Shown piece after piece: positions 2,674 through 59,331 of a stretch of 64,000 bases of DNA. Source of the DNA: Pelagomonas calceolata. Taxonomy: Eukaryota. The position numbers were made by a program, and so were the translations under genes. The notes below the pieces were generated by a model that saw nothing but the letters and a program-made list of their open reading frames with translations, did no database searches and was not told the origin of the DNA. The DNA lies in NCBI GenBank assembly GCA_918797485.1, contig CAKKNE010000001.1, positions 1,302,001-1,366,000 of the forward strand, given 5' to 3'. Numbering within the stretch: the stretch's first letter is position 1; each line of letters starts with the position of its first letter.

Positions 2674-2696
2674 GCTAGTGTCTAACTACCGCTAGA
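2674..2696 (-). promoter_or_regulatory. Upstream CTAG-GACACTAG motif copy
   Basis: Reverse complement TCTAGCGGTAGTTAGACACTAGC, ~90 bp before ATG 2785. Confidence 0.55.
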
Positions 2697-2784
2697 TAAT
2701 GTTGCTTTTCGCAATCAGCCACTTCGCCGCAGTTTTGCACACCAATGCAATATTGCCACCACTGACGCGTACGTATGCTCACGA

Positions 2785-3249
2785 ATGATGCTTGACATCC
2801 CAGCGCGCATGCAAACGCCATCGAAAACGTGCCCGGGCGTCAAAAACCACCAGGCTCACAATCTGCACGAGCCGCACGTGATGCAGCAAAACCTAATGCA
2901 CGAGCCGCAAGCAACGCTGAGGGCGCAGACGGAACCAATAGAGGTGCCCTCGCCGCAACGCCGGGCGACTTCGCGCAAGCCGCGCCGCGCGCCGACGCCG
3001 CCGCTGTGCGACGCCGGCCCGGCCGAGATGATGAGGATACTCACCCTAGACGGGGAGTGGCGGACGATGGGCGCGAGCCCACTGGCCGCAGCGCACGAGC
3101 TGCTCGACGGCGACGATGACGACTGCCCCGTCTGCGCCTCCCTGCGCCCCTTCAGACCCGCCGACGACGACGAGGGCCCGTTCGCCATGTCCCCGCCGAA
3201 GCTGTCTCCGCGCGCGTGCCGCTGCCCGCCCGCGCGCCCCGGCGGCTGA
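2785..3249 (+). CDS. Hypothetical protein (154 aa, CPVC motif)
   Basis: ATG-started ORF with GC3-rich 3' half; a copy of the upstream motif lies ~90 bp before the ATG. Confidence 0.55.
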   Translation: MMLDIPARMQTPSKTCPGVKNHQAHNLHEPHVMQQNLMHEPQATLRAQTEPIEVPSPQRRATSRKPRRAPTPPLCDAGPAEMMRILTLDGEWRTMGASPLAAAHELLDGDDDDCPVCASLRPFRPADDDEGPFAMSPPKLSPRACRCPPARPGG

Positions 3250-3354
3250 GGATCCCCCGCCATCCCTTTGGGCCTGTTGTGTTGTGGCCCAGGCGAGCGT
3301 TCTTCTTTCCCCTTGACTGTAATGACTGTCCTAGTTTCTCTGACCAGACCACTA

Positions 3355-4452
3355 CTAAATACCCCTAATCAGGGGTATTTAGAGCGAGGCGCCAGCGAGC
3401 CGTTAGGGTTCTAACCCGTATTTAACCCGCACCTTTCAAACACTAACCCGCACGTATCAACCCTAACCCGCGTTCCCGTACCACCTGGGGGTACGGTTGC
3501 TTAAAGCACGTGTGATAGTGCACGTGCTATAACAGCGAATTAGGTTGGGATGCTAATGCTAATCTAAAAGTGATTTAATCACCAAAATCGAACACGAAGT
3601 GTTCTTGTGCGCAGGGCGCCGCCGCAGCGTCTAAATCACCGCCGCGGCCACGCACAGCGCGCGCGGGGTGCACGGGGGCTCCTGCGTGCGCGAAGCGCTG
3701 CTGCGCGCACAAGAAATGCGCGCGCACAACACGCTGGGGCGTGGTGTTCGCCAAGGGGTTCGCACGGAGCTCGCGCGTCGATTCCGCGCCGCCAATCGCG
3801 CGAGTCGCCGCGCGCGAGTCGCCGCCGTAAAAAAATTGCCGCAAAACTCACGCGTTCATTTTCCTCACGCAGGACAAAAAAAATATTGTCCATATACAAC
3901 AGAAAAACTTGGACCATGAACCCAGGCAAAATCTCAAACGAGGATTACGTCGTCGACAGCGACGAAATAATGGAAGATGCAACTCACGATGCATTCAGAT
4001 GTATAAGCGCATTAGAAGTCTGGTTTGAACACCGGGGGGGGGGCTGCATTACATATATTATCTTTCATATGTTTTATACTTTTATGTTATACTAAGAAAG
4101 GGGGGGTCGGGCGAGGAGAGAGGCGAGGAGAGAGAGGCATTTTTCCGTCAAAAATTCAAAACATTTCAAATCGAAGAAAAAAAATTCGGAGAGGAGCCCT
4201 CTCCGCCTCTCCTCTCTCGCCTCCTCTCCTAGAGGGTTTTTTCTTACTAATTAGCATCCCAATTTGATTCGCTTTTTATAGCACGCGCTATAGCGCACGT
4301 GCTTTAAGCAACCGTACCCCCGGGTGTAACGGGAATGCGGGTTAGGGTTGAGACGTGTGGGTTAGTGTTTGAAAGGTGCGGGTTAAATGCAGGTTATGAA
4401 CCCTAACGGCTCGCTGGCGCCTCGCTAAATACCCCTAATTAGGGGTATTTAG
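3355..4452. mobile_element. Non-autonomous foldback/MITE-like element with ~203-bp terminal inverted repeats
   Basis: 3355-3557 is an imperfect reverse complement of 4250-4452. Both ends are 28-bp palindromes, CTAAATACCCCTAAT(C/T)AGGGGTATTTAG. ACTA is duplicated on both flanks (3351-3354, 4453-4456). The interior is AT-richer and has no recognisable transposase. Confidence 0.85.
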
Positions 4453-4468
4453 ACTACTACAACAACAG

Positions 4469-7400
4469 TTACTCGAAGGTCGTCGACGCGTCGACGCGGC
4501 TCAGCCGCTGGGACCGCGCGTGCGTCGGGCCCCGCGCCTTGTCACCGGGAGACGGCGCGTTCCCGATCCACGACCGTTTTTGAGAGCCACCGAAGAGCCT
4601 TCCAAAAAAACCTGGCCGTTGGTCGACACCCGCAACGACGGGCTCCTCGTCAATGGAATCCTCGTGCAACGGCAAGTCGGCCATAACCCTTAACTCCTCG
4701 AGGAGCGACCGGTCGCACCCGCGCACGTCCGCCGTGTCGACCATGCTCTCCATGACCCTCCTTAATTTAGCGTTCTGGGCCACTTGGTTGAGGTAGATGG
4801 CCTGCCTCATGGCCAGTTCTTCCTTGAGGACCGCTGTAGCTTTCAACAACTGCCGGTTCTCATTTTTTATGGACGCGTTCTTGTCGCCCAGGAACCGCAC
4901 GTGGGCCGCCACCGCCGCGACACTTTGTTGCGCCGATGCGCGGGCCTGCTGGCCCCGCTCGTGGTGCGTCCGCAATATATCATTTTCTCTTCTCAGAGCG
5001 TCGCAGGTCCGCGTGAGAGCTACCACTTCCGTCCTCAGGTAATCGAGCATGCGCGTGGACTCGTCCGTCAACGTATCAGAGGACAGCCTCCTCTCGACCC
5101 GTTCTCTTTGCTCTTTCTCTTCATCGAGGCGTCTTCTTAACTCGTCAAGTTGGTTCTCCATCTTCTGGCGCTCAATGGCGTTGCGTCGTAACTTCTCCAC
5201 GAACAACACAGCGAGGACCCTTCGAACTAAAGTCTGGATGCGCACCGAGGCGTCGCGGACTCGTGTGAACTTGTGCAGCTCGCTGCGCGTCTTCGCCCAC
5301 GCCGCGAGACGAGTCGCACTCACGCGGCGTCTTTTATGTTTCGTGGCCTTTCGAGCCCGTCTTGATCGCGCTACCGCTTGCAGCGTGATAGAAGCTGCGA
5401 CGAGGCTCACGAACGCGCGCCTCCTCACGAAACCGCGCCGCCGCCTCTGTACAAGGATAGCCGTTTGTCTGAGGACAGAGAACCGTCTCAACTGGAGATA
5501 CCTCCGCGCACACGTATTTACTGAAGTGGCACTCCTCGCATGCGCCGTGGATAACAGCCGCTCGAGGAACTCCAAGACGCCAGGTCCCAAATACACGCGA
5601 GTCTTGCCGACGGCGTGCCTCCTTTCACCAAGTAATGAACGTGCGACGCTCTCTACATCAGACTCGGACGTCAACCGGCCGTACCTTGCGAGGAACGCCG
5701 CGTGACCCGACCGGTTGGGGTAGCCGGCCCGCGTCATTTCCACCGCAGCGACGACGCCCGCGCATCTCAGCTGGGCACAAACCGATGGAGCATCAAACAA
5801 AGAAGATGACGCCTCGCTATTGGGCTTCACGCACCGCACGTACCTCGTCTCCGTCCGCGACACGTCCTCGAGGAGCGTCTTCAGCCTTCGTCGGAACTTG
5901 GAGGCGACCGTTTTTTGGCGCTTGTCGTCCGTTTCGAAGAGTGACGAGACGGAGCTCTTCTTCATGAGTTCTACCAAATCAGCATGTAGCGCGTCGCGGT
6001 TTCGTTCGCACCACCCGTCGACGGTGTATGATACTGGTTCCGCGTAGTGTCTTACCCCGAACTTGTTCGCAGAGAACTTGTCCGGCACATAAAAACGTTG
6101 ATTGTCGTCGTGCAAGGTCTTCAGCTTCGACACGAGAGCCAGCTCCGAGCCGCCCGGTCGGGCGCACTCTTCGTCGAGCACGTCTACAATACCCATCGGC
6201 CCCTCCAACAGTTTCAACGCAGCGGCGGCGTCCGGGAAGGCGATGGGTTCGAAGGGAATCCCCTCGTCCTCGTACTCCGCCTGGACGCTCCGGAACAGGT
6301 CCCGACCTGTGTGGAACGACGCCGTCGCGACACTGCCGCGGCTCTCTCGCGAGACGCGTGGACTCTCGCGCGGCCGCGTCGACGACGTCGAGGCGACACG
6401 GCATCGCGTCGACGCCGTCGCGGCGACCGCGTCAACTTGTGAAGCTCATTTCCCACGCTGAGCCACTGACAGAACTTCTCCTGTAGTCTTTCATTTGCGT
6501 AGTTGATGCACAGCTGCTCGAACCTGTTGATCGGGAAGGACTCGAAGCCGAAGATGTCCAGCAGACCACACGACGCCTCCCACGCATCGACAGAGGTGGC
6601 TTCGTTCGTGAGCGCGACGACCCAATCGAAGCATCGAGCGTAGAGCTCTTTGGCGAGGGCGTCCCTCGCGGCCGTTCTTTCGGCTGGCGTGCGCTGGACG
6701 ATGGTCGTTTCTCTTCTTACAGTTACTGTTCGTTCTTTGAGCGCTGTTTTTAGTGAATCTGCGGGTACGCCGAGCAATGAAGCTGCCTCATCGGTGCTAT
6801 CGCCGAGTAGAAACACCGCCTTGAGCATGTCTATTAGTGAATCGCGATCCTTGGCAGACACGCCGCACTTCGCCAGTGAAGCCCAGGCCTGGCTATGTCT
6901 ATCCTCATCTGTAAGACCTTCTATCGTACCGCGTTGCGACGCCGTGACGTAATGTAAAGCTGCTACATCTAAATCAGGAATGCCGTAGGCGCAGTGGTAC
7001 GTTCGTTCCCCAGGCGCTTGGGCTACGACCCTACTTTTCTCCAGTAAATACGTCTCGCAGTCCGACCCGCGCAGACGGCCGTGTCCATCATAGCGCAACC
7101 GCGTGAACTTGCCGAACCTCGACGAATTGTCGTTCCGGATCGTCTTGGCGTTGCCGAAGGATTCCAAGAGTGGAGCAGCATCTAACACGCGAGAGGCCAC
7201 ATCACTACTATCACCACAGAGGTGCCGCAGTAAAATCTTCACCGTCTCGGTCTTTCCGGCGCCCGACTCGCCAGACACGAGAATGGACTGGTCCCTGCCA
7301 TCGAGCACGCCTCGAAACGCGCGGTTGCTGATCGCATACGCGTGTGCTTCCTCTTGCTTCTCTCCGTAGCGTTCTCGCGTTTGAGCATCATACAACTGAG

Positions 7401-7740
7401 GCAGCCACTTAAATGGATTCACGGCCACCACAATGTCGTCTCCCGTGCGCGTGTAGGGCTTGCCTCGGAAGAACCGTTCGCGCAAACACCACAGCACGCT
7501 GGCCTCGTGGAGCCGGTCTAGAGAGACGAGGTCTTCGACGATTGCTGGCGTGTTCTGCTGCGGCAGCGTCGAGGCGTCGCCCTCTGTTTGTAATTCTACG
7601 TAGGGGCAGCTCTCTAGTGACGCGTCGTTGGCGGGGCGCCGCGCCTTGACCACGAGCTTGCCCGCGCTCTGTTGCAGGACGGTCGCCGGCGCCCAGACCA
7701 AGCGGTCGTCCTGGACGTAGATTGCGGCGCGGTCGGCCAT
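4469..7740 (-). CDS. Myosin heavy chain (motor, IQ motifs, coiled coil); 2 exons, ~1035 aa
   Basis: Motor motifs GESGAGKT, NDNSSRFGKF, LLDIFGFE and YVRCVKPN. Exons 7740-6471 and 6306-4469 join across GT-AG intron 6470-6307 to give NERLQEKFC-RDLFRSVQAEYEDEGI. Confidence 0.93.
6307..6470 (-). other. Spliceosomal intron (164 bp), probable degenerate introner
   Basis: GTCAGT...TTCCACACAG; removal restores the myosin frame. The acceptor end matches the introner TIR end and the interior is rich in CGCGTCGACG motifs. Confidence 0.85.
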
Positions 7741-7934
7741 GTGTTCCGCTGCCGCTGTGTTCCGCTGCCGAGATGCTGGAAACTTTGGTTTGAGGGCTGT
7801 TACTATGCGCAGCGCTGCTGAAAATTTGCGAGTAGCTCCTGGCGACCGCTGGCAAGCACTTAAACTTTTGCCGACAGCGCAAGGCTGGATTTACGACCAG
7901 TTTTGGCTGCCGCAAAAAAAGGTGAAAAATGCTT

Positions 7935-7959
7935 GCTAGTGCCTTTACTGAACGCTAGC
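7935..7959 (-). promoter_or_regulatory. Upstream motif copy (myosin/BMS1 divergent gap)
   Basis: Reverse complement GCTAGCGTTCAGTAAAGGCACTAGC. Confidence 0.55.
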
Positions 7960-13572: not shown

Positions 13573-14226
13573 CAAAGCTGTTTATGCACGTGGCTGAGGT
13601 ATTTGGCCTCGTTTGCTGCGGCGCGCGTGAGGATGCGATTGGTTCCGCGCGGGACGTGGCGTGCGCGACCGTGACGCGCTGCAGGAGTACTGGTTGCTCC
13701 GCTGATTGCGCGTAGCTCGAGCGTGCTAAAATGCTCTCGAGTCGGCCCAAATCAGGCAAAATGGGAACGACTGCCGAAGCGCCGAGTCAGGGACGAGTCG
13801 TCGCCGCCACACAACCACGAGGACGGGTAGATACGCATCTCCGAAGAAGACGAGCACTGCAGACAATCGACTAACGTGCGGGGTCAAGCCGCTCCCAGCT
13901 CGCTCCGCTTTTGGCCCAGTTTTCGCGGGTATACGGGCATACTTGACTGGTGAGTGCTGTCCAATCTTACAACCGGGCCTAATCGCCACGCTAGAGCAGA
14001 AGAAAGCGGCTCGCCGGACCCAGTGGACGCCACAATCAAGGCTAAAGAGGTAGCGCACGCGCTGCTCCAAAAGCGGCAGCGCAGCGCGCCGCACATTCGC
14101 ACGGTTCGGTACAGCATTATATACGCTGTCGCAAATACACGAGACGTCTCCTCCCGAGAAAACCGCCGTCTCCGCTCACCGCCCCGCCGCCCGCAGGCAG
14201 TCGATCGACAACAGCGCCACGAAACC

Positions 14227-14397
14227 ATGCTCAAGGCGGGCCAGGCGGCGACGCGCGTCGTGCGCGCCTGCGTCAAGGACGCCAAGGCCGCGGCCCTCGC
14301 GAGCGAGGCCAAGAGCTACTACACGGTCATCAAGTACGAGACGACGGGCGGCCAGGCGAAGGAGCTGTCGCGCGAGACCTTCGGGCAGAAGGAGTAG
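14227..14397 (+). CDS. Small hypothetical protein (56 aa)
   Basis: ACCATG context and near-pure GC3 codon usage: MLKAGQAATRVVRACVKDAK...FGQKE. Confidence 0.45.
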   Translation: MLKAGQAATRVVRACVKDAKAAALASEAKSYYTVIKYETTGGQAKELSRETFGQKE

Positions 14398-14744
14398 AGA
14401 GTAAGACGTGTTTATTTAAACCGTCGCGCGTCGTCGACGCCGGTACGAAGAGTATACTTTGCGTCGTAGACCGCGCGATCTCTGGGTCGACGGGGTTGGT
14501 GGTTCCGGTGCCAAGCCTAGTGGGCGGAGCCCCTGGGCTGGGGGGGAGACACCGCGCCCGGGTCGGGACCCCGCACCATCCGTTGCGAGTTTTGTGTGCC
14601 AAATTGTGGCAAACAATCACGCCCACAAGTGCGTGAGGCGCGCGCGTCGTGCATCCGGACCGCCGCGGCGCCGGGGGGCTGCCCGCACGCGGTTTGGGGA
14701 AGATGGCCAGCTGACAGGGCCAGGCATGCCCGCCCCCTAAACCT

Positions 14745-15535: not shown

Positions 15536-15559
15536 TGCCCGGTGCGCGGCGGCCGCTCC

Positions 15560-16192: not shown

Positions 16193-16214
16193 GCTAGCGG
16201 TGTAAGACACTAGA
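16193..16214 (+). promoter_or_regulatory. Upstream motif copy (before SNF2 gene)
   Basis: GCTAGCGGTGTAAGACACTAGA. Confidence 0.6.
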
Positions 16215-16392
16215 AATTTCTGCCGGGCGCGCAGCCGCGGCAGCGCCTTGTTGTGCGTGTCTTCGCAGTCACCACGCCAAATTCCTCGTCCTCGGACAGC
16301 TGCGCTGCGCTCCAGCCAACCTCAGTCCAGCAGAGGGCCGAGAGCGCCTGCGTTTTGAGCGCACCCAACAAGCTGCTAATTTGAATGCGCCG

Positions 16393-16474: not shown

Positions 16475-16478
16475 AAAA

Positions 16479-21082: not shown

Positions 21083-21106
21083 GCTAGCGGCCTGTAAGAC
21101 ACTAGC
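21083..21106 (+). promoter_or_regulatory. Upstream motif copy (before DnaJ/ankyrin gene)
   Basis: GCTAGCGGCCTGTAAGACACTAGC. Confidence 0.6.
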
Positions 21107-25427: not shown

Positions 25428-26004
25428 TGTCGCGCCGCGGCGCTGCGCTTCGCGACGTTTGTTGACGCGTTCGCTCGGCTGTCCTGCTCGCTCGCGTCGC
25501 TGCGGCGGCGGCGGCGTGCTCGCCCGAGCTGTTGTGGCTCCTAGAGCTGCTGGCACGCGACGTTGGTCCTAGAGCTCACGCAGCGCGCTGCTCGCTGTCG
25601 GTATGGCGCACAAATGAGATACCCTATTAAACGGCGCGCGTAAGCAGCCTCGCGCGCTCCGCGAGTTTTTATCTGAAGCAAAGGCCTAGGTGATGGACAC
25701 TAGACTCAGGGGAACCGGTTCCACAACTCGCGGATATGTCGCGCCCCGACCAAGCCACCCTGGCCTTTCTGGAGAACTCGGCGAAGCACGCGCCAAGCCC
25801 GCCCGATCTAGCTTTCTTACAAAGAAGCCATCGCGATCGTGATCGCCACGCGAGGGACATCCGGAGCCGTCGCGGCGAGCCAAAGGACCTCAGCGCTTGA
25901 TACGGTTTGCACCCGCGTCCCATCTTTGAGCAGGGGCAGCCAAGGGCAGCCTTTCCAGCGCCAACAGTGCGCCCACTCGAAAGCAGAGCCGCCGCGCAGG
26001 CACC

Positions 26005-31099: not shown

Positions 31100-31123
31100 G
31101 CTAGCGTATTGTAACACACTAGC
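31100..31123 (+). promoter_or_regulatory. Upstream motif copy (TMEM222/PHD divergent gap)
   Basis: GCTAGCGTATTGTAACACACTAGC. Confidence 0.6.
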
Positions 31124-43668: not shown

Positions 43669-43692
43669 TCTAGTGTCTTACAGCACGCTAAG
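43669..43692 (-). promoter_or_regulatory. Upstream motif copy (divergent gap 43397/43927)
   Basis: Reverse complement CTTAGCGTGCTGTAAGACACTAGA. Confidence 0.55.
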
Positions 43693-46532: not shown

Positions 46533-46587
46533 TATACAAAGTACTAACCTGTCGATCGTGTATGCAATTCTTAACTTTCTATCGTTC

Positions 46588-47507: not shown

Positions 47508-47705
47508 CGACTACTCGGCGCTGTGCGAGGGCTGCGGGTGAAGTTGCTGTGTGGCGCTCTGAGGGCTCTAAATGGCCTTGTAGTGAACAGAGATGGCTGA
47601 AATTGCTGCTCGGAGCGATAGGGGCTGCGAGGGCGCTGTGACGATGTATTGCTGGTTTGTTTAAAGCCTAGCAAGTGCTTGGGTAGCTTTGCGCCTGGCT
47701 GGCTG

Positions 47706-47728
47706 GCTAGTGTCTTAGTGTCGCTAGC
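47706..47728 (-). promoter_or_regulatory. Upstream motif copy (divergent gap 47507/47891)
   Basis: Reverse complement GCTAGCGACACTAAGACACTAGC. Confidence 0.6.
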
Positions 47729-47890
47729 TAGCGCTGGCTTTTGGGACAGCTTTGACGGCTTTATCGCTGCGTGCTGGGGCCGAAAATCGCGCGTGGAAAC
47801 GTTCTCGACGCGTGCGCTGCGTGGTGCTTTTTTTTTGGAGCGCTGCCTGGCTCCAACAGCTGCTGCAGTCTCACAGCCTCTGCGTCGCGT

Positions 47891-48832
47891 ATGCGCCGCA
47901 TAGCTGCTGCCGCCATGGCTGCCATGCTGTCATTCCGTGCCATGGCAATGAAACCGCACTTCCGAGTCGCAGTGATGGGAGACGCGCACGGAGACTTTCT
48001 GGACGGCGAGTGCGCCGTCTTAGAACGCGTCGCAAAGCCCGACCTCTTCCTAGCGGTCGGCGACTTCGCAAACGAAGAATCCACAATAATAAAACGAGTC
48101 GCGGCGGCCACGAAACACCTCTCGGGCGCCGCGCATCTAATCCTTGGCAACCACGACGCCTGGCGCTCGTCACGAACAGGCACCGTCTCCGAGACGCTGC
48201 GCGCCATCCGAGACGCCGTCTCTCCAGACCTGGACGTAGCTTACCGGCGTGTAGAGGTCCCGTCGGCTACTGGCGTATTTTCGGTAGTTGGCGCTCGGCC
48301 GCTGTCGTGGGGCGGAGGGCTCGCAGCCACTACGAAGAAGTCCTGGGCGCTGCTCAAGGAGCTCTACGGTGTCTCAACGCCCGAGGAATCGACGGGTGTC
48401 ATCACGGACGCGCTGCTCGGCGCCGTCGGACCGGCAATAGTAGTAGCGCACCAGGGTCCCGCGGGCCTGGGTGAAGAGGCTGCGTCTATATGTGGCAAGG
48501 ACTGGGTGCAGCCGTACTCTGATTTCGGTGATGATGATTTGCGGGATAGCCTTGCGTCAGCACGGTCTGTTGGCATACCCCTGTGTGCTTTTGGACACAT
48601 GCACGCACCTCTCCGGCACGGGGGCCGGCGCCGTATGGTGTGCGAGCGCGAGGGCACTGTATATGTGAACGCCGCCGAGGTGCCGCGACACCGACAATCG
48701 ACGACGGGTATCGAGTATCACTATACAATCGTCGACTTCGGCCCAGGGGACCGCGTGGACCGCGTCGCCGGCGTCTGGCTCAGCGAACGGGATGGGCTGG
48801 TCGACGAGGAGGTTCTGTGGAGGAGGGAGTAA
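47891..48832 (+). CDS. Calcineurin-like metallophosphoesterase (TIGR04168-like)
   Basis: GDAHG, VGDFANE, LGNHD, VAHQGPAGLG..SICGKDW..DFGDDDL, FGHMH and YVNAAEVPR. Confidence 0.88.
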   Translation: MRRIAAAAMAAMLSFRAMAMKPHFRVAVMGDAHGDFLDGECAVLERVAKPDLFLAVGDFANEESTIIKRVAAATKHLSGAAHLILGNHDAWRSSRTGTVSETLRAIRDAVSPDLDVAYRRVEVPSATGVFSVVGARPLSWGGGLAATTKKSWALLKELYGVSTPEESTGVITDALLGAVGPAIVVAHQGPAGLGEEAASICGKDWVQPYSDFGDDDLRDSLASARSVGIPLCAFGHMHAPLRHGGRRRMVCEREGTVYVNAAEVPRHRQSTTGIEYHYTIVDFGPGDRVDRVAGVWLSERDGLVDEEVLWRRE

Positions 48833-48844
48833 TATGTTTGTGAT

Positions 48845-51535: not shown

Positions 51536-51939
51536 CCTATCTGGTGCTTTGCTGCCCCGGCCTGCTGAGGTTCGTTTCTGAGGCTGCCTTTCGCAGATAG
51601 CGTGGGTGCTGTGCTTCGACAAAGTCCCCAGTGGCCGCTCGACCGCTTGTCAGCGCTTTCAGGCCGATTGCGCTGCGCAGACCTTCGCAACCGCTGCCCG
51701 AGGCGGCGCGAGCCGCTGCCCGAGGCGGCCGGCGGCCCGGCGCCCGCGTGGGCGAGCTGATGCCAGTTTCGTCTAGAGGGGTTAGAGCTGTCGCAGAACA
51801 GTGCGGCGCCGCCGAACGGCCCTGCTCCCGGCGGCGGGCCGGCGCATCTGGCCGGCGCGTCCATTTATGTACTAGTACAACAAAAACTCTAAAACAAAAC
51901 GATTATGTTAGGCGGACGAAGTGAGTGAGTGAGTGTGAG

Positions 51940-53652
51940 CTAGTGGGTATTCCGCTTGAGCCCGAAGAACGCCAGGAGCCGGAACGCGACGGCAAAACCA
52001 GCTAATACAGCAAGATCGGCCCCCACGCTCGAACGGCGGATCCGCGCGTCAATTAACGCGCTCTCGCGCAGCACCGTACACCTCCCCGCGGCGCAGTCGT
52101 AGTGCGCGCCCTTGTATTCGATCTTGAGGAGCGCGCCGTACGCGTAGCGCGTGAAACTCAAATCTCCAAACCATTTCAACCAGACCGGCACGCCGCGCAC
52201 GTAGAACCCGCCGCACATCATCGTCGCCAGCATAAAAACCGTTTGTAATGTAGTAGCGCGCTTCAGATTCATGATCCACGCGCCAATACATAATCCCGCG
52301 GAGTGGGCACATAACGAGTTTAGGAAGAGCGTGAGCAGATGCCAGCCGACCTCTGATGGCCTTAAACCAGCAGCAAAGTAGTAGATCAACGATAATAAAG
52401 GCGACATTAACACAATAGTGAGCGTGTCCACGGACGTCCTTGCTAAGAAGTAGGCGCTGATGGAGTATAATCCAGCCGCGCGCTCTTTGGTGACGACGAC
52501 GCGATCCGCCGGAAACGTATACAACGCCAAGATCATGAGCTGGAAGGCCCAATAAACAGGACTCAAAAACAACAACCCCGAGATGTCCCGTACTGACGTT
52601 TCGGTCCGCGGCCGCTTCGACCCTTGGCCCGACCATAAAGTTGCAGATAATAACATGACGCTGAACATGTTCGCCAGGAGCATGGGGTCCACGAGATCCA
52701 GCCGGTGCGCGAGGAAGCAGCGCTTTAGTAGTATGATGAATTGCGACAGCCAGGGCAAAGCTGGCCCGGCCTCCTCTGATATACTGATGGTGCCAGTAGT
52801 AGCCGCCGCCTCGCGCGCGGTCGCCTGTTTCGCGTCGTCGCCACAAATGACTTCCATCAAATAATCGGCAATGGGCATGCCCTTCGGCGGCGGTTTCGGG
52901 GCGATCGCCGCGACCGCGTTTTGCGGGTCGCCGGCGTACGAGGCCTCGCCGTCCCGCAGCAATAGTAGCGAATCAAACCCCAGAAACATGGCGTCGGTAG
53001 GTTGGTGGAGCGTCGCGAGCACGGCGACGCCGCGCGTCGACAGGTCTTTGAGGATGCGAAAGATCTTCGCGGCCGCGTGGCTATCCAATCCGGAAGTGGG
53101 CTCGTCCAGCAAAACTAAACCAGGATCCAACAAAAGCTCGTGGCCGATGGAGACGCGCCGCCGCTGGCCGCCCGAGATCTCCCTTCTTATGTTCGCGCCT
53201 CCGATCGCTTGGTCGGCGCACTTGTCTAGATTTAGTTCGTGGAGCATTAGTGATGCTCGTGCGGCCGGGTCGGGCTCGCCTCTTAATGCTGCGGCAAATG
53301 TCAAAGTTTGGCGCACGGTCAGGTCTTTTAGTAGAGCATCCTCCTGTTCCACAAAGGCCACGCGCCGCTTATGCCGCGAGCGGTCCCAGGCCTCGCCGTC
53401 GTAGCGCACGGAGCCTCTTAGGACACGTAATTGCGACGGGAAGCGCGCCGACACGGTGCCGAGCAGCGTGCTTTTACCAGAGCCGGACGGGCCCAGCACC
53501 GCCGTCAGCGCGCCGGCGCTCGCGCCTCCCGTCAAGTTGCGGAGGACGGGCACGCGCTTGGGGCCGACGCCGACGGTCAGGTCCTGCCATTGCACGCTCA
53601 AGCCCGCTGTCTGTTCCTGCTTTTGCTCAGCTAGGGAGGCTGGCCGGCACAT
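51940..53652 (-). CDS. ABCG half-transporter (NBD-TMD)
   Basis: GPSGSGKST, ISGGQRRRVSIG, LLDEPTSGLDS, TLHQP and ERAAGLY, followed by a multi-TM C-terminus. Confidence 0.93.
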   Translation of the reverse strand: MCRPASLAEQKQEQTAGLSVQWQDLTVGVGPKRVPVLRNLTGGASAGALTAVLGPSGSGKSTLLGTVSARFPSQLRVLRGSVRYDGEAWDRSRHKRRVAFVEQEDALLKDLTVRQTLTFAAALRGEPDPAARASLMLHELNLDKCADQAIGGANIRREISGGQRRRVSIGHELLLDPGLVLLDEPTSGLDSHAAAKIFRILKDLSTRGVAVLATLHQPTDAMFLGFDSLLLLRDGEASYAGDPQNAVAAIAPKPPPKGMPIADYLMEVICGDDAKQATAREAAATTGTISISEEAGPALPWLSQFIILLKRCFLAHRLDLVDPMLLANMFSVMLLSATLWSGQGSKRPRTETSVRDISGLLFLSPVYWAFQLMILALYTFPADRVVVTKERAAGLYSISAYFLARTSVDTLTIVLMSPLLSLIYYFAAGLRPSEVGWHLLTLFLNSLCAHSAGLCIGAWIMNLKRATTLQTVFMLATMMCGGFYVRGVPVWLKWFGDLSFTRYAYGALLKIEYKGAHYDCAAGRCTVLRESALIDARIRRSSVGADLAVLAGFAVAFRLLAFFGLKRNTH

Positions 53653-54067
53653 GATGCTGTCTCTGTGCTCGGTCTGACAGCGATTTCGAGCAGCGATTCG
53701 TCGCAGCACGATGAGTGCTATTACAGCGGTCCTAATTCTCGGCTGTCGGCTGCGCTGGACAGCAATGCAAGTGCTCTGCGCTGTTTTGAAGTGCGTGTTG
53801 AGCGCTAGCTTGACATACTAGTTTCGACGGCTCTTGTTTCAGTTCTCTTGAGGGGCAATAGAGAGCCGTCTGAGGACCCTTGTTGAGGCTGCTCTCTCAG
53901 AGTGGGAAAAATAGGCATTGTCTGCGTTGGCAAGTTTGAGCGTGCTGCAAACGCCGGCCAAGTGCAACGCACTAGCCGAACGCATACACAGAACACGTAA
54001 GCGTCACCGGCTTACTCTCGCGAAACCGATTTGGCACACTTGCAAAGCGAAAAAACGACGAGCAGCC

Positions 54068-54988
54068 ATGCTCGGCCAACCCGCAGCGTGCATATTGCTC
54101 CTCACGACGGGCGCCACGGCGTTCGACTACCTCGCGTCGCTGACCGTGCAGGACGCGGCAACCGTGGCTAAGCCGGCGGCCAAAGACCCTGCGACCTACC
54201 TCGAGTCGCTTCCGACGCCGAAGGCCGCCACTATCAAAGAGGCCGTCGCCGCCGCGCCCGTGCTCGTTCCACGCACGGACCCGTTCTCGAACCCGAAGGC
54301 CGAGGCGCGCCAGGAGGCGTCGACGACGTGGGACGCGGCCCGGCGCAAGGCCCAGGACGACGGCCCGAAGGCGGATTACGCGGCGCGCGCCAGGGAGTGG
54401 GTGCTGAACGACGGTTTCCACGCGCCGGCCAAGGCGTCGCTCATGGCCGACGATTTTGTGTGGTTCGGTCCGATCGTGGGACCGCTCAACAAGCAGGACT
54501 TCCTCCGCACCGTCGACATGTTTAAAGTGTACGAGGGCTTCCCGGACCTCAAAATGCACCTCGCCGAGTTCACGCGGGACCCGGTCGAGGAGAATAGATA
54601 CTGGAGCATTTTGCGCCTCGAGGGCACGAACACGGAGCCCCAGGCCTCGGGCACCGGTTTTTCGTACAAGCCGACCAACAACAAGCTGGACGTCGGGCCG
54701 CAGTGCATCTCGGTCACGTTCGACGCGGACGGGCGCGTGTCGCGGTACACGGGCGGGTACGTCGTGGACCGCACCCAGGGCAAAACGGGTATGCTCGGCG
54801 CAATGTTCGCAATCACCAAAACGGTGGGCGGCTTCGTCCCTTCGCTGCGCGTGGCCAAGATCCTCAATGCCATCGGCGCGCGGCTGAAGAATTTCCCCAA
54901 GGCCCGGAGCCACCGGGATGATCTCCCCGCGAAGTGGCGGTCGCTGGGGCGCCGGTTCGGAAAGCGCACAGCCGAGGCGTGGGATTAA
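54068..54988 (+). CDS. SnoaL/NTF2-like protein, probably plastid-targeted
   Basis: Signal peptide plus ATAF; MADDFVWFGPIVGPLNKQDF, EGFPDL and GGYVVDRTQGKTGMLGAMF. Confidence 0.7.
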   Translation: MLGQPAACILLLTTGATAFDYLASLTVQDAATVAKPAAKDPATYLESLPTPKAATIKEAVAAAPVLVPRTDPFSNPKAEARQEASTTWDAARRKAQDDGPKADYAARAREWVLNDGFHAPAKASLMADDFVWFGPIVGPLNKQDFLRTVDMFKVYEGFPDLKMHLAEFTRDPVEENRYWSILRLEGTNTEPQASGTGFSYKPTNNKLDVGPQCISVTFDADGRVSRYTGGYVVDRTQGKTGMLGAMFAITKTVGGFVPSLRVAKILNAIGARLKNFPKARSHRDDLPAKWRSLGRRFGKRTAEAWD

Positions 54989-55040
54989 GCATTAGTAGAC
55001 ACGGAGGTATGCGCTCTTTGCCACGCGATGTGTAACAATT

Positions 55041-55062
55041 GCTAGTGTCTTTGTTCGCTAGC
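55041..55062 (-). promoter_or_regulatory. Upstream motif copy (before methyltransferase 55297)
   Basis: Reverse complement GCTAGCGAACAAAGACACTAGC. Confidence 0.55.
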
Positions 55063-55296
55063 TCAAAGCGTCGTCGCGAGCGTGTACCACTGCATGAGGC
55101 GCTGCAAATTAGCGCATCATCTATCATTACCGTGCCCACGACCTGCTGATCGCGGCTGAGCCATCGCTGCGATAGGTGCAGGGCTCGTTTGCAGGGGCCA
55201 CTGTGAGAGCAAATATATATATATTTGATCAAACACCATCGCAGCGTGCCCCATCTGTGCGAACGAAAATCATCTGCGGGAGCATTGATCAAAAGA

Positions 55297-56178
55297 ATGA
55301 GTGCGCTGCAAGCGGCGGTGTGCCCAGACGGTCTGGAGGCCATCGTCGGCGCCGACGACGCTAAATGGCTCACAAATGAAGCCCGCAAAGCGAAGGAGCG
55401 CGTGGAGCGCTACGACGGCGCCGACGGCGCCGCGGCGCTCTTTGATGAGGAGGACGCGAGCGACGGCGGGTGCGAGGGCGGTGACGGCTGGATGGAATGG
55501 CTCGACCTCTTCTTCGTGGCCTCCGCGGTGCAGTGGCCGCCGGCGCCGTATTTAAAGTACCATAGCTCGATCGGCGCGATTGGCCACGGCGACGTCGTCT
55601 GGGCCGCGGGCGAGGAGCTGGCGCGGCGGATCCTCGCGCACGAGGCGCCGTTCGAGGCCGTAGGCATGGGCACGCGCGTGCTCGAGATGGGCGCGGGCTG
55701 CGGCCTGCCGTCGCTCGCGGCGGCGCACGGCGGCGCCGACGTCGTCGCGACGGACGCGCCCGTCGCCGGCGGCATCGTCGCGCTCGCGGCGACGGCGCGC
55801 AGGATGGGGCCGACCTTCGACGGGCGGCTCCGCGTCCGGCGGCTCGACTGGGGCGACGCCGCGCGGGAGGGTCCGTTCGACGTCGTATTAATGGCCGACA
55901 TCATCTACGCGCCGTCCGCGCATGAGAAGCTACTGGACACGCTCCGGGGCGTCTTCGAGGCCAACCCCAAGGCCGTCGCCGTCGTCGCGTTCTGTTTGCA
56001 TGGGAACGCGCCGGACGACAAGGTCATGGCGTTCTTCGACCGCGCGCGCGAACGCGGCCTGACAGCGACGGAGGTCGACGTCGTCCAGCGCGGCGCCTCC
56101 GAGTCGATGCGAGGCGTCATCATGGCTACGGACCCGAAGCGGGCGCGCGTGCATACGTGGGTGTTGAGGCTAAGTTAA
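55297..56178 (+). CDS. Lysine methyltransferase family 16 (METTL21/EFM7-like)
   Basis: GDVVWAAG, RVLEMGAGCGLPSL, VVATD, LDWG and DVVLMADIIY. Confidence 0.88.
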   Translation: MSALQAAVCPDGLEAIVGADDAKWLTNEARKAKERVERYDGADGAAALFDEEDASDGGCEGGDGWMEWLDLFFVASAVQWPPAPYLKYHSSIGAIGHGDVVWAAGEELARRILAHEAPFEAVGMGTRVLEMGAGCGLPSLAAAHGGADVVATDAPVAGGIVALAATARRMGPTFDGRLRVRRLDWGDAAREGPFDVVLMADIIYAPSAHEKLLDTLRGVFEANPKAVAVVAFCLHGNAPDDKVMAFFDRARERGLTATEVDVVQRGASESMRGVIMATDPKRARVHTWVLRLS

Positions 56179-56180
56179 CA

Positions 56181-57533
56181 CTACTTATCCAGCTCCCAGA
56201 ACCCACACATCCCGCACAAGGGATGCGTCGGTTTTTCGAGAGGCTTCACCTTCCGCAGCTTGATGCGGTTCTTCGACCGGTGCGGGTCGCGCTTGCCGAC
56301 CAAACGCGAAAAGGGCGTCGCGTCTAAGACATCCTCGACGGAGTTGTCGTCGTCGTCGACGACGATGATCTTGGGCTTCCTCTTCTTCTTCTTTCGTTTG
56401 GCGATTGGTATTTGCCCTTTTGGTAATGTGCCGAGCGCCCAGTCCCGCAGCGCCGTGAACGCGACGTCCCGGCGCGACGCGAAGCCGTGGTCCGCGCCGG
56501 ACACTATCGTTAATGAACTGCCTCTGCTTTTTTTTCGGGCCAGAGCTTTCGCGTGCAGGAACTCCGAGATTTGCAGCGCGACGTTGCCGTCCCTCGAACC
56601 GTGTAAGAACAGGCACGGGCAACTTGATCGATCGATGCACGGCGGCGTCGACAGGTTCCGCAAGTCGTACGCGTCGCCGCCGAAGGCATGGCCCGCGATC
56701 GTCGCCGTGCCGCCGATTCTATGTCCGAGCCCCTTGCGTTGCAACCTATCCAAGCACGCCCAGCCCACAGCCCCGCCAAACCCATGGCCGACGATCAGCA
56801 CGTACGCGCGCGGGTACTGCTCCATCAACCAAGCACACGCGATGAACGCGTCGTCGACCGCCGTCTCCAGACTACCTTGCCTTGCCAATTTCATCTTTTT
56901 CTTCCGCACGGCCGACCAGTCCAGGATCAAGGATGAAACATCACCAGACACAAACTCCTCGACAAATTTACCGTGGTGGTTCGTCTGCCACTTCAATTGA
57001 CTCCCGGTGTCTTCGTACGACCACGTATGACAACGGCCCGTCGCAAGTTCATGTGCTAATCGTAAAAAGAGGGCCCCTCTGCCTCTTTGAGTGTGGCATT
57101 TCTCTAAAGCTTGGGGGTACCTTGCTACTCCCGGTCCGAGGCCGCCGTCCGAGCTCGGGAGCAGCAGTGCCACTGCTTTTGGTGAGGAGTCGCGGGGCCA
57201 GAAATGCAAACCTCGCGTGCTCCCGAGCTCGCGCCAGGCGCACCTGAGCAGAGACGGGTCCTCGGCGGGCGCCGGCGCCGGCGCGCCCGCACATGCAAGA
57301 GTACCATCATAATCCGGCGCGGGCGCCTCGTCGTCAAAAAAGGCCTCGACGGGGCTTCTAGCTTCCTCGTCTCCTCTAGAAGGCGACGCGAGGCCTTCGG
57401 GCTCGTCGCGCTCGCGCGAGTCGAGGAGCCGCTGCGCATCCACTCTAAGCTCCCTCACGTCCTTGACGCGCGGGTCGTCGCTCGTCGGGACGGAGACGTG
57501 GGTCCGCACGCTTGAAGGCGTCCGGTACGCCAT
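56181..57533 (-). CDS. Alpha/beta-hydrolase-fold protein lacking the nucleophile Ser
   Basis: LIVGHGFGGAV (GxSxG expected), CPCLFLHGSRDGNV and GADHGF. Confidence 0.8.
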   Translation of the reverse strand: MAYRTPSSVRTHVSVPTSDDPRVKDVRELRVDAQRLLDSRERDEPEGLASPSRGDEEARSPVEAFFDDEAPAPDYDGTLACAGAPAPAPAEDPSLLRCAWRELGSTRGLHFWPRDSSPKAVALLLPSSDGGLGPGVARYPQALEKCHTQRGRGALFLRLAHELATGRCHTWSYEDTGSQLKWQTNHHGKFVEEFVSGDVSSLILDWSAVRKKKMKLARQGSLETAVDDAFIACAWLMEQYPRAYVLIVGHGFGGAVGWACLDRLQRKGLGHRIGGTATIAGHAFGGDAYDLRNLSTPPCIDRSSCPCLFLHGSRDGNVALQISEFLHAKALARKKSRGSSLTIVSGADHGFASRRDVAFTALRDWALGTLPKGQIPIAKRKKKKRKPKIIVVDDDDNSVEDVLDATPFSRLVGKRDPHRSKNRIKLRKVKPLEKPTHPLCGMCGFWELDK

Positions 57534-57713
57534 GCGCTCGCGTCGACGGCGTCACGGCGCCCTCACCGAGGCTGGAGGCTCCTACTCCTTCTCCGGGTCA
57601 GCGTTTGCCCAAGGGCAGCCACCGGCGGACGTGGGCAGGAATTTGGACGGCGTAAAACGCAGCCTTGTCGGAAGAGGTGTCCAATATGGTCTCAGCTCCA
57701 ACGCCGAGCTGTT

Positions 57714-57736
57714 GCTAGTGTCTTACTGCCGCTAGC
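57714..57736 (-). promoter_or_regulatory. Upstream motif copy (divergent gap 57533/57895)
   Basis: Reverse complement GCTAGCGGCAGTAAGACACTAGC. Confidence 0.6.
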
Positions 57737-57894
57737 ATGCGCACGGCGAAGAAAAGTCTAACAGCGGGTCATCATCATAGAACCCCTCTTAATGCACGCG
57801 CGATGGCTGCCCAATCGACCCCCCACGGGTACAAGTCCGAAATTCCCCCACTTGGCATCAGCCTGCGAGGCTGCCCCGCAGCGCATATATAGCA

Positions 57895-59267
57895 ATGCGG
57901 CGCATCACACTCCTCCTCGCCGCCGCGGCCGTATCAGCAGAGTACTTTGATGTGGAGGAGGACGCCTTCTGGGAGAACGACGGCCCGCAGGAGCCGCGCA
58001 AGACGGTCAAGCCCAAGACGACGGCGCCGCGCATCGCGAAGCGCGACCGGGCGCAATTATCATTGAACCAGATGGTGACGTTTGCGTCCCAGGGCTGGAT
58101 CCGGTGTGTCAAGTGCATTCCTGAATTACGCGATCCGGGCGTCGCTGCGGCGTTGGACCGCGGCTACGAAGCGACATTGCGGCAGTACGCGAGGTATGCT
58201 CCCTCGTTCATGTTAGATCGGTTCGACGTCGACGTCCACGAACACAACGAGGAGTGCGGTCCCGTGGTTATGGAGCTGCTCGATCAGGGTCGAAGGGGCG
58301 TCGAGGAGTACCTGGATCGGCTACGGTGTTCCGTGCGCATAGGACGGCACTATTCGAACGTGTCCTTGCCTTATTTTCAGGGCTTGAACGTGCATCGCGT
58401 CGAAAGTGTTGTTGAGTCTGTCGCGACGACGAAAGCACTAGGCTTGGCCGCTGCCAGTCTGTTACAAGCCGCCAAGGTTCGGTTGTACCAGACGGCCATG
58501 TTCGTGAAGGATCCGGCCCATGGCGCTGGCTTAAATAATGCGACAGGATGGCACCGCGACTTGCAGTTGGTACCTTTGGATACGCGAGGTAGAGGTTATG
58601 TGACCTTCTGGTGCCCCTACGAGCGCCCATTAGGCGAAGGGGATTCCTTCCTGCACTTCGCCGTCGGTTCCCAACGAGACATTGGGTTTGAGTACTGGTA
58701 CGGCAACCCGGAAAAATTAGGACCGCTCATAGCAGCTAGATACGCCATTACGAGAGTCGCGTCATTGGATGTGGGCGACTGCACGGCCCACGACGGCTGG
58801 ACGTTCCACACGGCGCCGCCGCAGGATCCGTCGCGGGGCGCGCGCAAGGCCGTGGCTTTCTGTGTGGAAATCAAAATATTACGGCGCGTTCGCCATCGAC
58901 GCGATGCCTGCTCGATGGCGTGGCGGCGCCGGTTCCTCACCGCTCGACGGAGCCAGCACGGCAGCGTGTGCACCCGACACACTGGTTGATTTCCACACAG
59001 GTGGCGTTTTCGTTCGTGACGACGGACGCGATACCTCTCCCGGACTTGGACGCGGAGAATATACGTGTGGACCGGCCGGATAGGGTCTTCGTGAGGGAGG
59101 ACGAGATCGGGTGGCGCGACTTCTATGACGACTTGGAGCCCTTCGAGCCCGTCGACCATGAATTACTACCCATGGTCTTCGAAGATACGCGGGCGACGAA
59201 TTTGCCCGCGCCCGGCGGCAAGCAGTCTCTGCTGAATGCTGCTAGGGCGGCGGGGGCGAACATCTAA
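57895..59267 (+). CDS. PhyH-like Fe(II)/2-oxoglutarate dioxygenase with signal peptide; 2 exons, ~407 aa
   Basis: FVKDP..TGWHRD, VTFWCP, GDCTAHDGWTFHTA..RKAVAFSF. Exons 57895-58851 and 59001-59267. Confidence 0.88.
58852..59000 (+). mobile_element. Introner intron C (149 bp)
   Basis: Perfect 15-bp TIRs spanning 58860-59000; TSD GTGGCTTT (58852-58859) / GTGGCGTT (59001-59008). Confidence 0.93.
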
Positions 59268-59308
59268 GCTTTCGTTTTACAGAACTTATACAAAACCAGG
59301 CAGGCGCA

Positions 59309-59331
59309 GCTAGCGCCTGTAAGACACTAGC
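59309..59331 (+). promoter_or_regulatory. Upstream motif copy (before UNC-93-like gene)
   Basis: GCTAGCGCCTGTAAGACACTAGC. Confidence 0.6.

Follow-up and report, generated by a model that had tools for sequence, protein, structure and literature searches.

Several classes of promoter sequence described in other eukaryotes provide a background for the locus analyzed here. Yeast general regulatory factors, among them Reb1, Abf1, and Rap1, recognize sites that are thought to open chromatin and to block read-through, and the Abf1 site is bipartite (RTCRY-N5-ACG). In vertebrates, multi-zinc-finger proteins read long promoter motifs, such as the ZNF143/Staf SBS of 18-20 bp and the CTCF motif with its optional upstream module; these motifs are found near thousands of transcription starts, often in bidirectional promoters, and act in either orientation. 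The fission-yeast HomolD box and the Drosophila elements Motif 1 and DRE are shorter (8-12 bp) and replace the TATA box at a fixed short distance in housekeeping-type genes. In oomycetes, the INR and FPR elements are core promoter words of fixed orientation that overlap the transcription start.

The DNA examined was a window of 64 kb (64,000 nucleotides) from Pelagomonas calceolata. The accessible part of the genome paper reports a GC content of 63% and few introns, which measure about 150-210 bp and contain repeats (PMC9481584), and the window was consistent with these features. In a preliminary description made from the letters alone, 12 sites, two of them weak, had been assigned to a motif composed of GCTAGCG, two to four variable nucleotides, and GTAAGACACTAG. 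All 12 sites were present in the window; only the minus-strand coordinates had been off by one. The complete pattern GCTAGCG-N(2-4)-GTAAGACACTAG occurred four times without mismatch, compared with no occurrence in 100 shuffles, and nine sites carried at most two mismatches over the 19 core positions, compared with none in 30 second-order Markov shuffles. When the 12-mer GTAAGACACTAG was searched for separately with at most one mismatch, nine occurrences were obtained against 0.08 expected, and eight of these were sites already listed. The ninth falls within the coding sequence for myosin (6044-6055); four of the seven positions of the 5' half mismatch there, and the invariant last G is changed. 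As the 5' half is absent, this match was rejected as an instance of the motif. With 12 sites in 64 kb, the density of the motif is about one per 5-6 kb.

A metagenome scan yielded at least 121 further contigs with 123 exact copies, and these copies gave a refined consensus of approximately 28 bp, A-GCTAGCG-(G/T)C(C/A)T-GTAAGACACTAG-CAAGC, the spacer of which measures 2-4 nt. The architecture of two halves joined by a variable spacer, as originally proposed, was borne out; what had to be revised was the freedom of the spacer, which is partly specified, and the extent of the motif, which continues with an A at position -1 and CAA(GC) at the 3' end. Spacers of 4 nt (n = 80) were more numerous than those of 3 nt (n = 38) or 2 nt (n = 5), and the spacer sequence was non-random, the 4-nt form being G/T-C-C/A-T with GCCT preferred. 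Information was carried by the spacer, by position -1, and by positions +1 to +5, and it fell below 0.15 bit beyond -1 and about +5/+6. The flanks differed at 123 of 123 exact copies, and comparison of the copies in the window led to the same observation, in agreement with the earlier statement that the flanks are not conserved. Mismatches in 21 copies collected without conditioning on an exact match were concentrated at positions 1-2 of the 5' half and positions 1, 5, and 6 of the 3' half, and no mismatch was seen in these 21 copies in the TAG of the 5' half or the ACTAG of the 3' half. This position-specific pattern would be typical of a binding site. The 3' half almost never stood alone, being paired with a 5' half in 19 of 21 cases. 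The two ends form an imperfect inverted repeat (GCTAGCG ... CACTAGC). A hairpin or cruciform was considered and rejected, as folds of four copies were not above those of shuffles. In the non-coding DNA of the metagenome loci, k-mer enrichment detected no second word of comparable weight; the only other find was a minor companion motif.

For the placement of the motif, a gene map of the window was made using Pfam, a codon model trained on the window, and RNA contigs. The promoter-bearing gaps of this map add up to 6,124 bp, or 9.6% of the window, and contained all 12 sites (binomial p = 6e-13), whereas no copy was located in the predicted coding sequence of the window (~51 kb). Copies were present in seven of eight divergent gaps, five of 11 tandem gaps, and none of the nine convergent gaps. 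The restriction of the motif to the upstream side of genes, its absence from coding sequences and convergent gaps, and the presence of a single copy in every occupied gap therefore hold on the new map, as does the location of five of the ten strong copies in divergent gaps. The neighboring genes are functionally unrelated, as had been suggested, and include those for a kinase, myosin, BMS1, SNF2, DnaJ, RCC1, an ABC transporter, methyltransferases, and others. Seven of the 19 promoter-bearing gaps lacked a copy. In one of these seven, divergent starts are well mapped (28309/28316 and 28444/28464), so that initiation does not depend on the motif; accordingly, it does not behave as a core promoter element needed at most promoters of its class.

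Transcript starts were taken from the ends of unstranded short-read RNA contigs (the longest ones listed) and from a few stranded-read pile-ups, none of them cap-selected. Where both kinds of evidence exist, they agreed exactly in one case (57869 and 57869) and lay close together in the other (28444 vs 28464). Nine sites were assessable, leaving out 2675, 7936, and 47707. At six of them (16193, 25686, 31100, 53804, 55042, and 57715) a transcript 5' end was located 6-36 bp from the motif edge, in three cases 3' of the motif and in three cases 5' of it. A positional relation to transcript starts, the lack of which had been named in advance as a ground for giving up the promoter reading, was thus observed at these six of nine sites. 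The remaining three sites, 43670, 59309, and 21083, had no start within 36 bp. A TATA-like element would be expected at a fixed distance and in a fixed orientation; on these contig-end starts, the six near ends fall on either side of the motif, and at the other three sites the starts lie 75-368 bp away.

Seven copies are located in divergent gaps. The minus-strand copy at 7936..7959 (GCTAGCGTTCAGTAAAGGCACTAG) carries one inserted nucleotide in its 3' half and separates the genes for myosin (-) and BMS1 (+). At 25686..25703 (+), a weak variant (CTAGGTGATGGACACTAG) was found 25 and 16 bp from the minus-strand 5' ends of Tudor-gene contigs (25661 and 25670), measured from its 5' edge. The copy at 31100..31122 (+), with one mismatch, carries a recurrent variant (GTAACACACTAG) and is followed by a plus-strand contig start at 31158, 36 bp past its 3' edge. 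The copy at 43670..43692 (-), with two mismatches in the 5' half, has a minus-strand read-end pile-up at 43531 (139 bp) and a plus-strand contig start at 43767 (75 bp), and the copy at 47707..47728 (-) has one mismatch, no transcript end being apparent there in the RNA data. A second weak variant (GCTAGCTTGACATACTAG) at 53804..53821 (+) lies, by its 5' edge, 25 and 27 bp from the minus-strand 5' ends of ABC-transporter contigs (53779 and 53777). The exact copy at 57715..57736 (-) has two minus-strand contig 5' ends nearby, one at 57702, 13 bp from its edge, and one at 57664, and the plus-strand start at 57869, given by a contig start and 13 read ends, is 133 bp away. Where both starts of a divergent gap were mapped or estimated, one adjoined the motif and the other was about 130-150 bp away. 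For the unannotated neighbor gene at 56184-57533, an Atlas look-up suggests an alpha/beta-hydrolase-like fold.

Five copies occupy tandem gaps. The copy at 2675..2696 (-; TCTAGCGGTAGTTAGACACTAG) has two mismatches and a 3-nt spacer and lies 88 bp before the ATG at 2785. The exact copy at 16193..16213 (+) has a 2-nt spacer; RNA of the upstream gene ends at 16012, and SNF2-gene contigs start at 16231 and 16238, 18 and 25 bp past the 3' edge. Another exact copy, with the 4-nt spacer GCCT, is found at 21083..21105 (+), 47 bp beyond the RNA end (21152) of the upstream gene, which is on the minus strand. The nearest mapped minus-strand 5' end, 20715, is 368 bp off, so this site is either an exception to start proximity or one whose start is not yet placed. 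The copy at 55042..55062 (-), with two mismatches and a 2-nt spacer, has the plus-strand contig start of a methyltransferase gene (55068) 6 bp from its 5' edge. Finally, the exact copy at 59309..59330 (+) is preceded by the RNA end of the upstream gene (59206-59260) and followed, after 77 bp, by the start of the downstream contig (59407); one RNA contig crosses it.

The same distribution was observed in independent metagenome contigs (284 kb), whose gene maps were derived from Pfam and the window-trained codon model. Predicted coding sequence makes up 71% of the bases but held only four of the 123 exact copies (p = 5e-59). Of the exact copies assigned to gaps, 32 were in divergent, 28 in tandem, and two in convergent gaps, with the limitation that introns can mimic tandem gaps. 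Among the gaps that had not been used as bait, a copy was present in 8/24 of the divergent and 3/37 of the tandem gaps but in none of the 45 convergent gaps (Fisher p = 0.0015). An equal frequency of the motif in all gap classes and in coding sequence was thus seen neither in the window nor in these contigs. In tandem gaps, 20 copies were in sense and 11 in antisense orientation, which is no significant preference (p = 0.15), and in divergent gaps the motif was closer to the gene on its 3' side in 17 of 40 cases. The claim that the motif occurs in either orientation is borne out, as far as placement is concerned, by this tandem split and by the starts found on both sides.

In the homologous locus pairs L010/L086 and L068/L119 (73% and 80% identity by BLAST), the motif was kept and the adjacent non-coding DNA contained indels and substitutions; this conservation is partly an effect of ascertainment, because both pairs had been fetched for holding an exact copy. 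In the pair L029/L062, the motif was found at the same place in inverted orientation. No copy was present in the viral contigs of the scan. In 596 Gb of prokaryote genomes, eight copies were detected, close to the 13 or so expected by chance under uniform base composition. At least five of these eight belonged to marine bins and showed a eukaryote-type spacer or the CAAGC tail, two bins sharing the same contig, and when five of these genomes were searched whole, each contained one copy per 1.2-7.0 Mb, so that none provided the additional data set that a mislabelled algal bin would have been.

About half of the gaps that contain gene starts carry one copy. Since the motif has this frequency, occurs in either orientation, was never found between gene ends in the window, and lies near starts, it is likely to be a docking site for a protein. 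The word is a real, strongly over-represented promoter-gap motif, and we regard it as probable that it is the site of a putative two-module DNA-binding protein, which would organize or protect the promoter immediately upstream of the closest transcript start. The class that fits best is a general, orientation-independent, TSS-proximal promoter element, the activity of which we infer from placement and constraint. One protein, or two acting as a pair, would read the invariant TAGCG core and the invariant CACTAG core, and the linker between the two modules would tolerate the loss of 1-2 nt. The bound factor would sit at the place usually taken by the TATA box, its center about 15-50 bp from the start, and from this place it would seed the assembly of the transcription machinery, or position that machinery, to either side. 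As the genome is tightly packed, it could in addition keep transcription of the upstream gene from running through. The length of the word counts against this reading, a near-invariant stretch of 28 bp being unusually long for one factor.

Compared with the described systems, the motif resembles the sites of Reb1, Abf1, and Rap1 in being a specific, orientation-free word found in many unrelated promoters and enriched where promoters are shared, and it resembles the Abf1 site in having two half-sites around a spacer. Enrichment in the promoter DNA of unrelated genes, a hallmark of general regulatory factor sites, was found in both the window and the metagenome loci. The yeast sites differ in being much shorter (7-13 bp against ~28 bp here, with a partly specified spacer varying from 2 to 4 nt) and in lying about 80-150 bp upstream, whereas the motif is 6-36 bp from the start at six of nine sites; there is also no sequence likeness. 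With the ZNF143 and CTCF motifs it shares a long, information-rich, modular structure with some freedom of spacing and a location near the starts of unrelated genes, but the sequence and the eukaryotic supergroup are different, and a zinc-finger reader is not implied. Its prevalence, about half of the promoter gaps, is above the prevalence generally known for these vertebrate motifs. Unlike HomolD, Motif 1, and DRE, which are mostly restricted to gene classes, it serves unrelated genes and has starts on either side. The INR and FPR elements of oomycetes, which are also stramenopiles, are similar as lineage-specific promoter words in compact genomes, but they are unrelated in sequence and differ in overlapping the start with a fixed orientation.

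Four other explanations were weighed. A bound factor could act mainly as a barrier that stops read-through polymerases and separates transcription units in gaps of 100-500 bp, start proximity being a by-product. The motif does lie between the upstream RNA end and the downstream start in tandem gaps (16012/16193/16231; 59206-59260/59309/59407; 21152/21083), and read depth was low to moderate at genes whose start adjoins the motif (~3-57 per bin) compared with 80-310 at several motif-less neighbors, a rough measure on a small sample. Yet divergent gaps, into which no upstream gene reads, carry the motif most often (7/8 in the window; 8/24 against 3/37 tandem in the unseeded gaps), and one RNA contig crosses the 59309 copy. 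We therefore consider a pure barrier unlikely; as it needs the same putative binding protein, it is a variant of the preferred reading. Alternatively, the motif could be a relic of a mobile or copy-paste element of very small size with a preference for insertion into open promoter DNA, kept by recent spread and not by function. Many near-identical short copies over ~28 bp and imperfect inverted ends are also properties of MITE and transposon termini, the variable middle junction is reminiscent of an excision footprint, and introner-like repeats are present in the same genome. Against such an origin, all 123 exact copies differ in both flanks and have no sequence continuing into an element or conserved interior; target-site duplications were absent (the best of 660 boundary and length combinations was a 4-mer at 3 of 117); the mismatches are position-specific and not uniform; the supposed junction has a preferred sequence of its own, GCCT; and homologous loci 20-27% apart in sequence have retained the motif. 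We know of no eukaryotic mobile element as short as ~28 bp and judge this origin decidedly improbable, in line with the initial view that the motif is not an ordinary dispersed repeat; a transposon terminus, named at the outset as an outcome that would overturn the promoter reading, was not borne out.

Long, specific, orientation-free intergenic words might also be expected at replication origins or chromosome-maintenance sites, for example sites of ORC-type binding that coincide with promoters, and origins are often found in nucleosome-free promoter DNA. The spacing of one copy per 5-6 kb is far denser than origins need, the tight link to transcript 5' ends would be unexpected, and the sites show no switch in strand composition beyond the outward A>T, C>G bias of the transcription units, so that we give this explanation very little weight. 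Least probable of all is an element acting as RNA, whether a leader, an upstream transcript, a structured RNA, or a small RNA gene. GTAAG resembles a splice donor, and the contig reading across the 59309 copy would fit; in contrast, contigs stop short of the motif at six sites, and both orientations relative to the downstream gene occur. No copy had a match in Rfam or in a tRNA scan (the only Rfam match in the window was a tRNA at 44545-44616), the DNA of four copies folded no better than shuffles (z -0.97 to +0.34), and the transcript starts among those listed had no common loose-end leader.

No published description of the motif was found in the literature searched; in the preliminary description, too, it had not been recognized as a described motif. 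In the text reached by a literature string search, the 12-mer GTAAGACACTAG was absent in forward orientation, and its reverse complement appeared once, in an unrelated paper on yeast diphthamide. Search listings for pelagophyte or stramenopile promoter motifs contained nothing relevant. The words "motif," "promoter," and "intergenic" are absent from the main text of the P. calceolata genome paper (PMC9481584), the readable supplements of which mention only protein-domain "motifs," and "motif" does not occur in the accessible text of a Hi-C preprint (10.1101/2025.04.21.649811).

More tentatively, and with more doubt than confidence, we propose that the 28-bp word and a putative lineage-specific factor might constitute the main TATA-substitute promoter signal of this globally abundant ocean picoalga, maintained by selection at the starts of thousands of genes and common to diverged relatives. 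Such a compact and portable "universal promoter" would, if true, be unlike the short and degenerate core elements of model eukaryotes. If one long word marks about half of the promoters, it offers a direct handle on transcription start in understudied but ecologically dominant marine algae and could be used as bait for its putative factor. In the annotation of genomes and metagenome bins, the word can help to locate where genes start and which way they run, and it can reveal eukaryotic contigs wrongly placed in prokaryote bins, as happened in the prokaryote-genome scan. For genetic tools, it could provide a minimal synthetic part with promoter function. It would also test whether stramenopiles evolved the logic of the yeast-type general regulatory factor on their own, using a far longer site at the TATA position.

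The bipartite motif, in which a 5' half (GCTAGCG) and a 12-mer 3' half (GTAAGACACTAG) are separated by a spacer of 2-4 nt, occurred in the window far above expectation. The 3' half with at most one mismatch was found 9 times (0.08 expected), the exact full pattern 4 times (0 in 100 shuffles), and nine sites carried no more than two mismatches over the 19 core positions, compared to none in 30 second-order Markov shuffles. The copies listed in the preliminary description are thus real: nine sites at this threshold (2675-, 16193+, 21083+, 31100+, 43670-, 47707-, 55042-, 57715-, and 59309+), one copy whose 3' half carries an extra base (7936-7959, minus strand), and two weaker variants (25686-25703 and 53804-53821, plus strand). 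A match at 6044-6055, in myosin coding sequence, was rejected; it comprised the 3' half alone, with its last base altered and without the 5' half.

The window had a GC content of 58-68% and densely packed long open reading frames, with Pfam matches typical of eukaryotes (a protein kinase with ankyrin repeats, myosin, BMS1/Tsr1, SNF2 helicase, DnaJ, SKIP/SNW, RCC1 proteins, an ABC-G type transporter, ribulose-phosphate epimerase, and others). A codon model trained on the Pfam-supported frames delimited 44 coding segments, covering 50,823 of the 64,000 bp. On this gene map, all 12 motif copies were located in gaps bound to hold at least one promoter, which total 6,124 bp or 9.6% of the window (binomial p = 6e-13). 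Seven of the 8 divergent and 5 of the 11 tandem gaps were occupied, each by a single copy, whereas none of the 9 convergent gaps and no coding sequence of the window held one. The motif had been described as restricted to the upstream regions of genes, with one copy per gap and functionally unrelated neighbors, and this description holds for the window; Pfam revealed no function common to the adjoining genes.

The genes of the window were covered by RNA contigs and stranded poly(A) reads from the same organism, and these showed a few introns of about 95-206 bp. Such features are in keeping with the genome paper of the pelagophyte Pelagomonas calceolata, which gives 63% GC, 11% intergenic DNA, and 0.45 introns per gene, with a length peak near 210 bp (PMC9481584). 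Introns 22121-22326, 22900-23079, and 58852-59000 (GT..AG or CT..AC joints) had a repeat in common that looks like an introner-type family. About 35-45 nt of it (22286-22329, 58968-59002) also occurred within a very abundant transcript from elsewhere, with hundreds to thousands of loose read ends there, and an inverted copy near 60509-60544 produced joints on apparently opposite strands. A tRNA-Trp (CCA) gene (44544-44616, minus strand) lay within a spliced minus-strand intron (44496-44654); in many reads the sequence returned from position 44616 to 44545, always across an insert of 32 nt, as either a circular or permuted RNA or a tandem copy located elsewhere could produce. Minus-strand RNA 3' ends at 61160/61161 were extremely short, 13 nt past the stop at 61173, and convergent transcripts overlapped, the SNF2 and DnaJ genes being joined in one RNA contig (18600-18624). 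The myosin motor domain (4469-7890, minus strand) was split over two overlapping frames (4469-6445 and 6214-7890), implying an intron or a frameshift.

Scanning metagenome contigs with the exact pattern yielded at least 121 stretches, and 120 of these loci were examined (283,885 bp in all, 54-74% GC, no overlap with the copies of the window). They contained 123 exact copies, each with different flanks. Only 4 of the 123 fell in predicted coding sequence, though the window-trained codon model assigned 71% of locus bases to it (p = 5e-59); 32 were in divergent, 28 in tandem, and 2 in convergent gaps, and 57 had a neighboring gene on one side only or on neither. Another 12 copies, carrying 1-3 mismatches and not themselves bait, were found in the locus flanks. 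All were non-coding; divergent gaps accounted for 8 and tandem gaps for 3, and the remaining one had a single neighboring gene. Of the unseeded gaps of at least 40 bp, copies were present in 8 of the 24 divergent and 3 of the 37 tandem ones and in none of the 45 convergent ones (promoter-bearing versus convergent, Fisher p = 0.0015), the tandem value being lowered insofar as some of these gaps may be introns. The comparison of gap classes and coding sequence proposed in the preliminary description thus favored divergent and tandem gaps in independent DNA.

No copy was present in 2.9 million viral contigs, and prokaryote genomes gave 8 in 596 Gb. Since most of these 8 came from marine bins with an alga-type spacer or tail, and the same motif-bearing contig was present in two different bins, they look like mis-binned eukaryotic DNA, as contigs L125 and L128 (also L122-L124) from prokaryote bins probably are. 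Five of these genomes, searched whole, had one copy apiece.

Among the 123 exact copies, 80 had a 4-nt spacer, 38 a 3-nt spacer, and 5 a 2-nt spacer. The spacer had been called slightly variable, which is correct for its length; its sequence is partly specified, the 4-nt form preferring G/T-C-C/A-T, with GCCT by itself in 28 copies. Of 121 exact copies, 65 had A just before the motif; of 118, the three bases after it were C in 89, A in 90, and A in 85, with a less marked G-C next. Because the spacer and edge bases also carry preference, the full word extends to about 28 bp, A-GCTAGCG-GCCT-GTAAGACACTAG-CAAGC. Beyond the CAAGC tail the information content of the exact locus copies was about zero, and the wider flanks are indeed not conserved. 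In 21 unconditioned copies, which were not required to match exactly (9 from the window and 12 from the loci), mismatches were concentrated in the 5' half at its first two positions and in the 3' half at positions 1, 5, and 6, with GTAACACACTAG as a recurrent variant. The 5'-half TAG and the 3'-half ACTAG were mismatch-free. In 19 of the 21 occurrences of the 3' half outside bait sites, a 5' half accompanied it.

In the copies at L046, L048, L051, L013, L080, and L087, the CAAGC tail was shifted by about 7-9 nt (CACTAG-GGATGCC-TAGCAAG), which hints at a third module with flexible spacing of its own. In at least eight metagenome loci (L011, L021, L030, L058, L066, L081, L108, and L112), a second recurrent word, roughly CTTCCAGGGCTCCCGCGYTTAGGAAAT, preceded the main motif on its 5' side by 5-50 bp; no clear copy stood beside any motif in the window.

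Either orientation occurs, as described. The motif ran with the downstream gene in 20 tandem gaps and against it in 11 (p = 0.15), and in 17 of 40 divergent gaps the gene on its 3' side was the nearer one. Predicted coding starts lay at a median of about 175 bp from the motif, whichever the side. Outward from some 30-50 bp off the motif, base composition on both sides had a mild A>T and C>G bias, which is weakly suggestive of transcription leaving both ways on average.

Transcripts were mapped on 43000-62000 and 14000-33000 with two sets of stranded poly(A) reads and two of RNA contigs, dating from different years. Contig ends matched read-end pile-ups wherever both were present, as for the contig start at 57869 (the end of 13 molecules) and that at 28444 (pile-up at 28464). 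Contig 5' ends came close to the motif at six sites. On its 3' side, they were found 18 and 25 bp from its edge at site 16193 (16231 and 16238), 36 bp at 31100 (31158), and 13 bp at 57715 (57702); on the 5' side, they were found 6 bp away at 55042 (55068), 16 and 25 bp at 25686 (25670 and 25661), and 25 and 27 bp at 53804 (53779 and 53777). We infer that repeat-induced assembly breaks are an unlikely cause, since the ends lie outside the motif and the copy at 16193 is a rare spacer variant. Starts were more distant at 43670 (139 bp for the read pile-up at 43531, at most 75 bp for a contig start) and at 59309 (77 bp for the downstream contig start, with one contig running through the motif). 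At 21083, where repeats break contigs, the nearest mapped 5' end (20715) was 368 bp off, and at 47707 reads and contigs over 43000-62000 resolved no transcript end. The other start of the divergent gap was 133 bp from the motif at 57715 and an estimated 150 bp or so, from bin depth, at 25686. A motif-less divergent gap also had sharp starts (28309/28316 and 28444/28464), so the motif is common and not obligatory. Where a gene start abuts the motif, read depth was modest, in a small sample, compared to some motif-less neighbors. This is more in keeping with a constitutive role of the housekeeping type than with a strong activator.

BLAST revealed a few diverged homologous pairs among the loci. 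Apart from the length of the spacer, every motif base was retained within L010/L086 (73% identity) and within L068/L119 (80%), a test biased by both members of each pair having been fetched for an exact copy; the non-coding DNA beside it carried substitutions and indels. In L029/L062 it occupied the same place in opposite orientation. Its retention in diverged pairs implies that the motif is older than their divergence.

These data bear on what the motif is. A mobile-element relic, such as the terminus of a degraded transposon, is disfavored by the placement in independent DNA, the conservation in homologous pairs, and the motif anatomy: the flanks all differ, and no target-site duplication appeared over 660 boundary and length combinations (best, 3 of 117). 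The density of copies and their tie to transcript starts speak against an origin of replication. An RNA element is likewise disfavored by the occurrence in both orientations, the positions of the contig ends, a fold of the motif DNA no better than shuffles, and the lack of any Rfam family at any copy. We regard the motif as a putative DNA-level promoter element.

In logic it resembles the sites of yeast general regulatory factors, among which the Abf1 site is also bipartite, and the long vertebrate motifs of the ZNF143 and CTCF type; in position it resembles TATA-less core elements, HomolD and Drosophila Motif 1 among them. Its sequence and length (about 28 bp) set it apart from all of these, as do a spacer that is length-variable yet partly specified, a place near the start combined with freedom of orientation, and the share of promoters occupied. 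In literature text, GTAAGACACTAG did not occur as written, and its reverse complement occurred once, in an unrelated paper. No DNA motif is mentioned in the Pelagomonas calceolata genome paper or in those of its supplements that could be read (PMC9481584), and a search of the openly accessible literature gave no published description.

The most economical mechanism would be a sequence-specific protein, or protein pair, that binds the motif. It would contact both invariant cores, tolerating slight changes in the linker between them, occupy the place of a TATA box with respect to the nearest start, and work whichever way the motif points. Once bound, it could position the transcription machinery, keep the short gap nucleosome-free, or stop read-through from the upstream gene.
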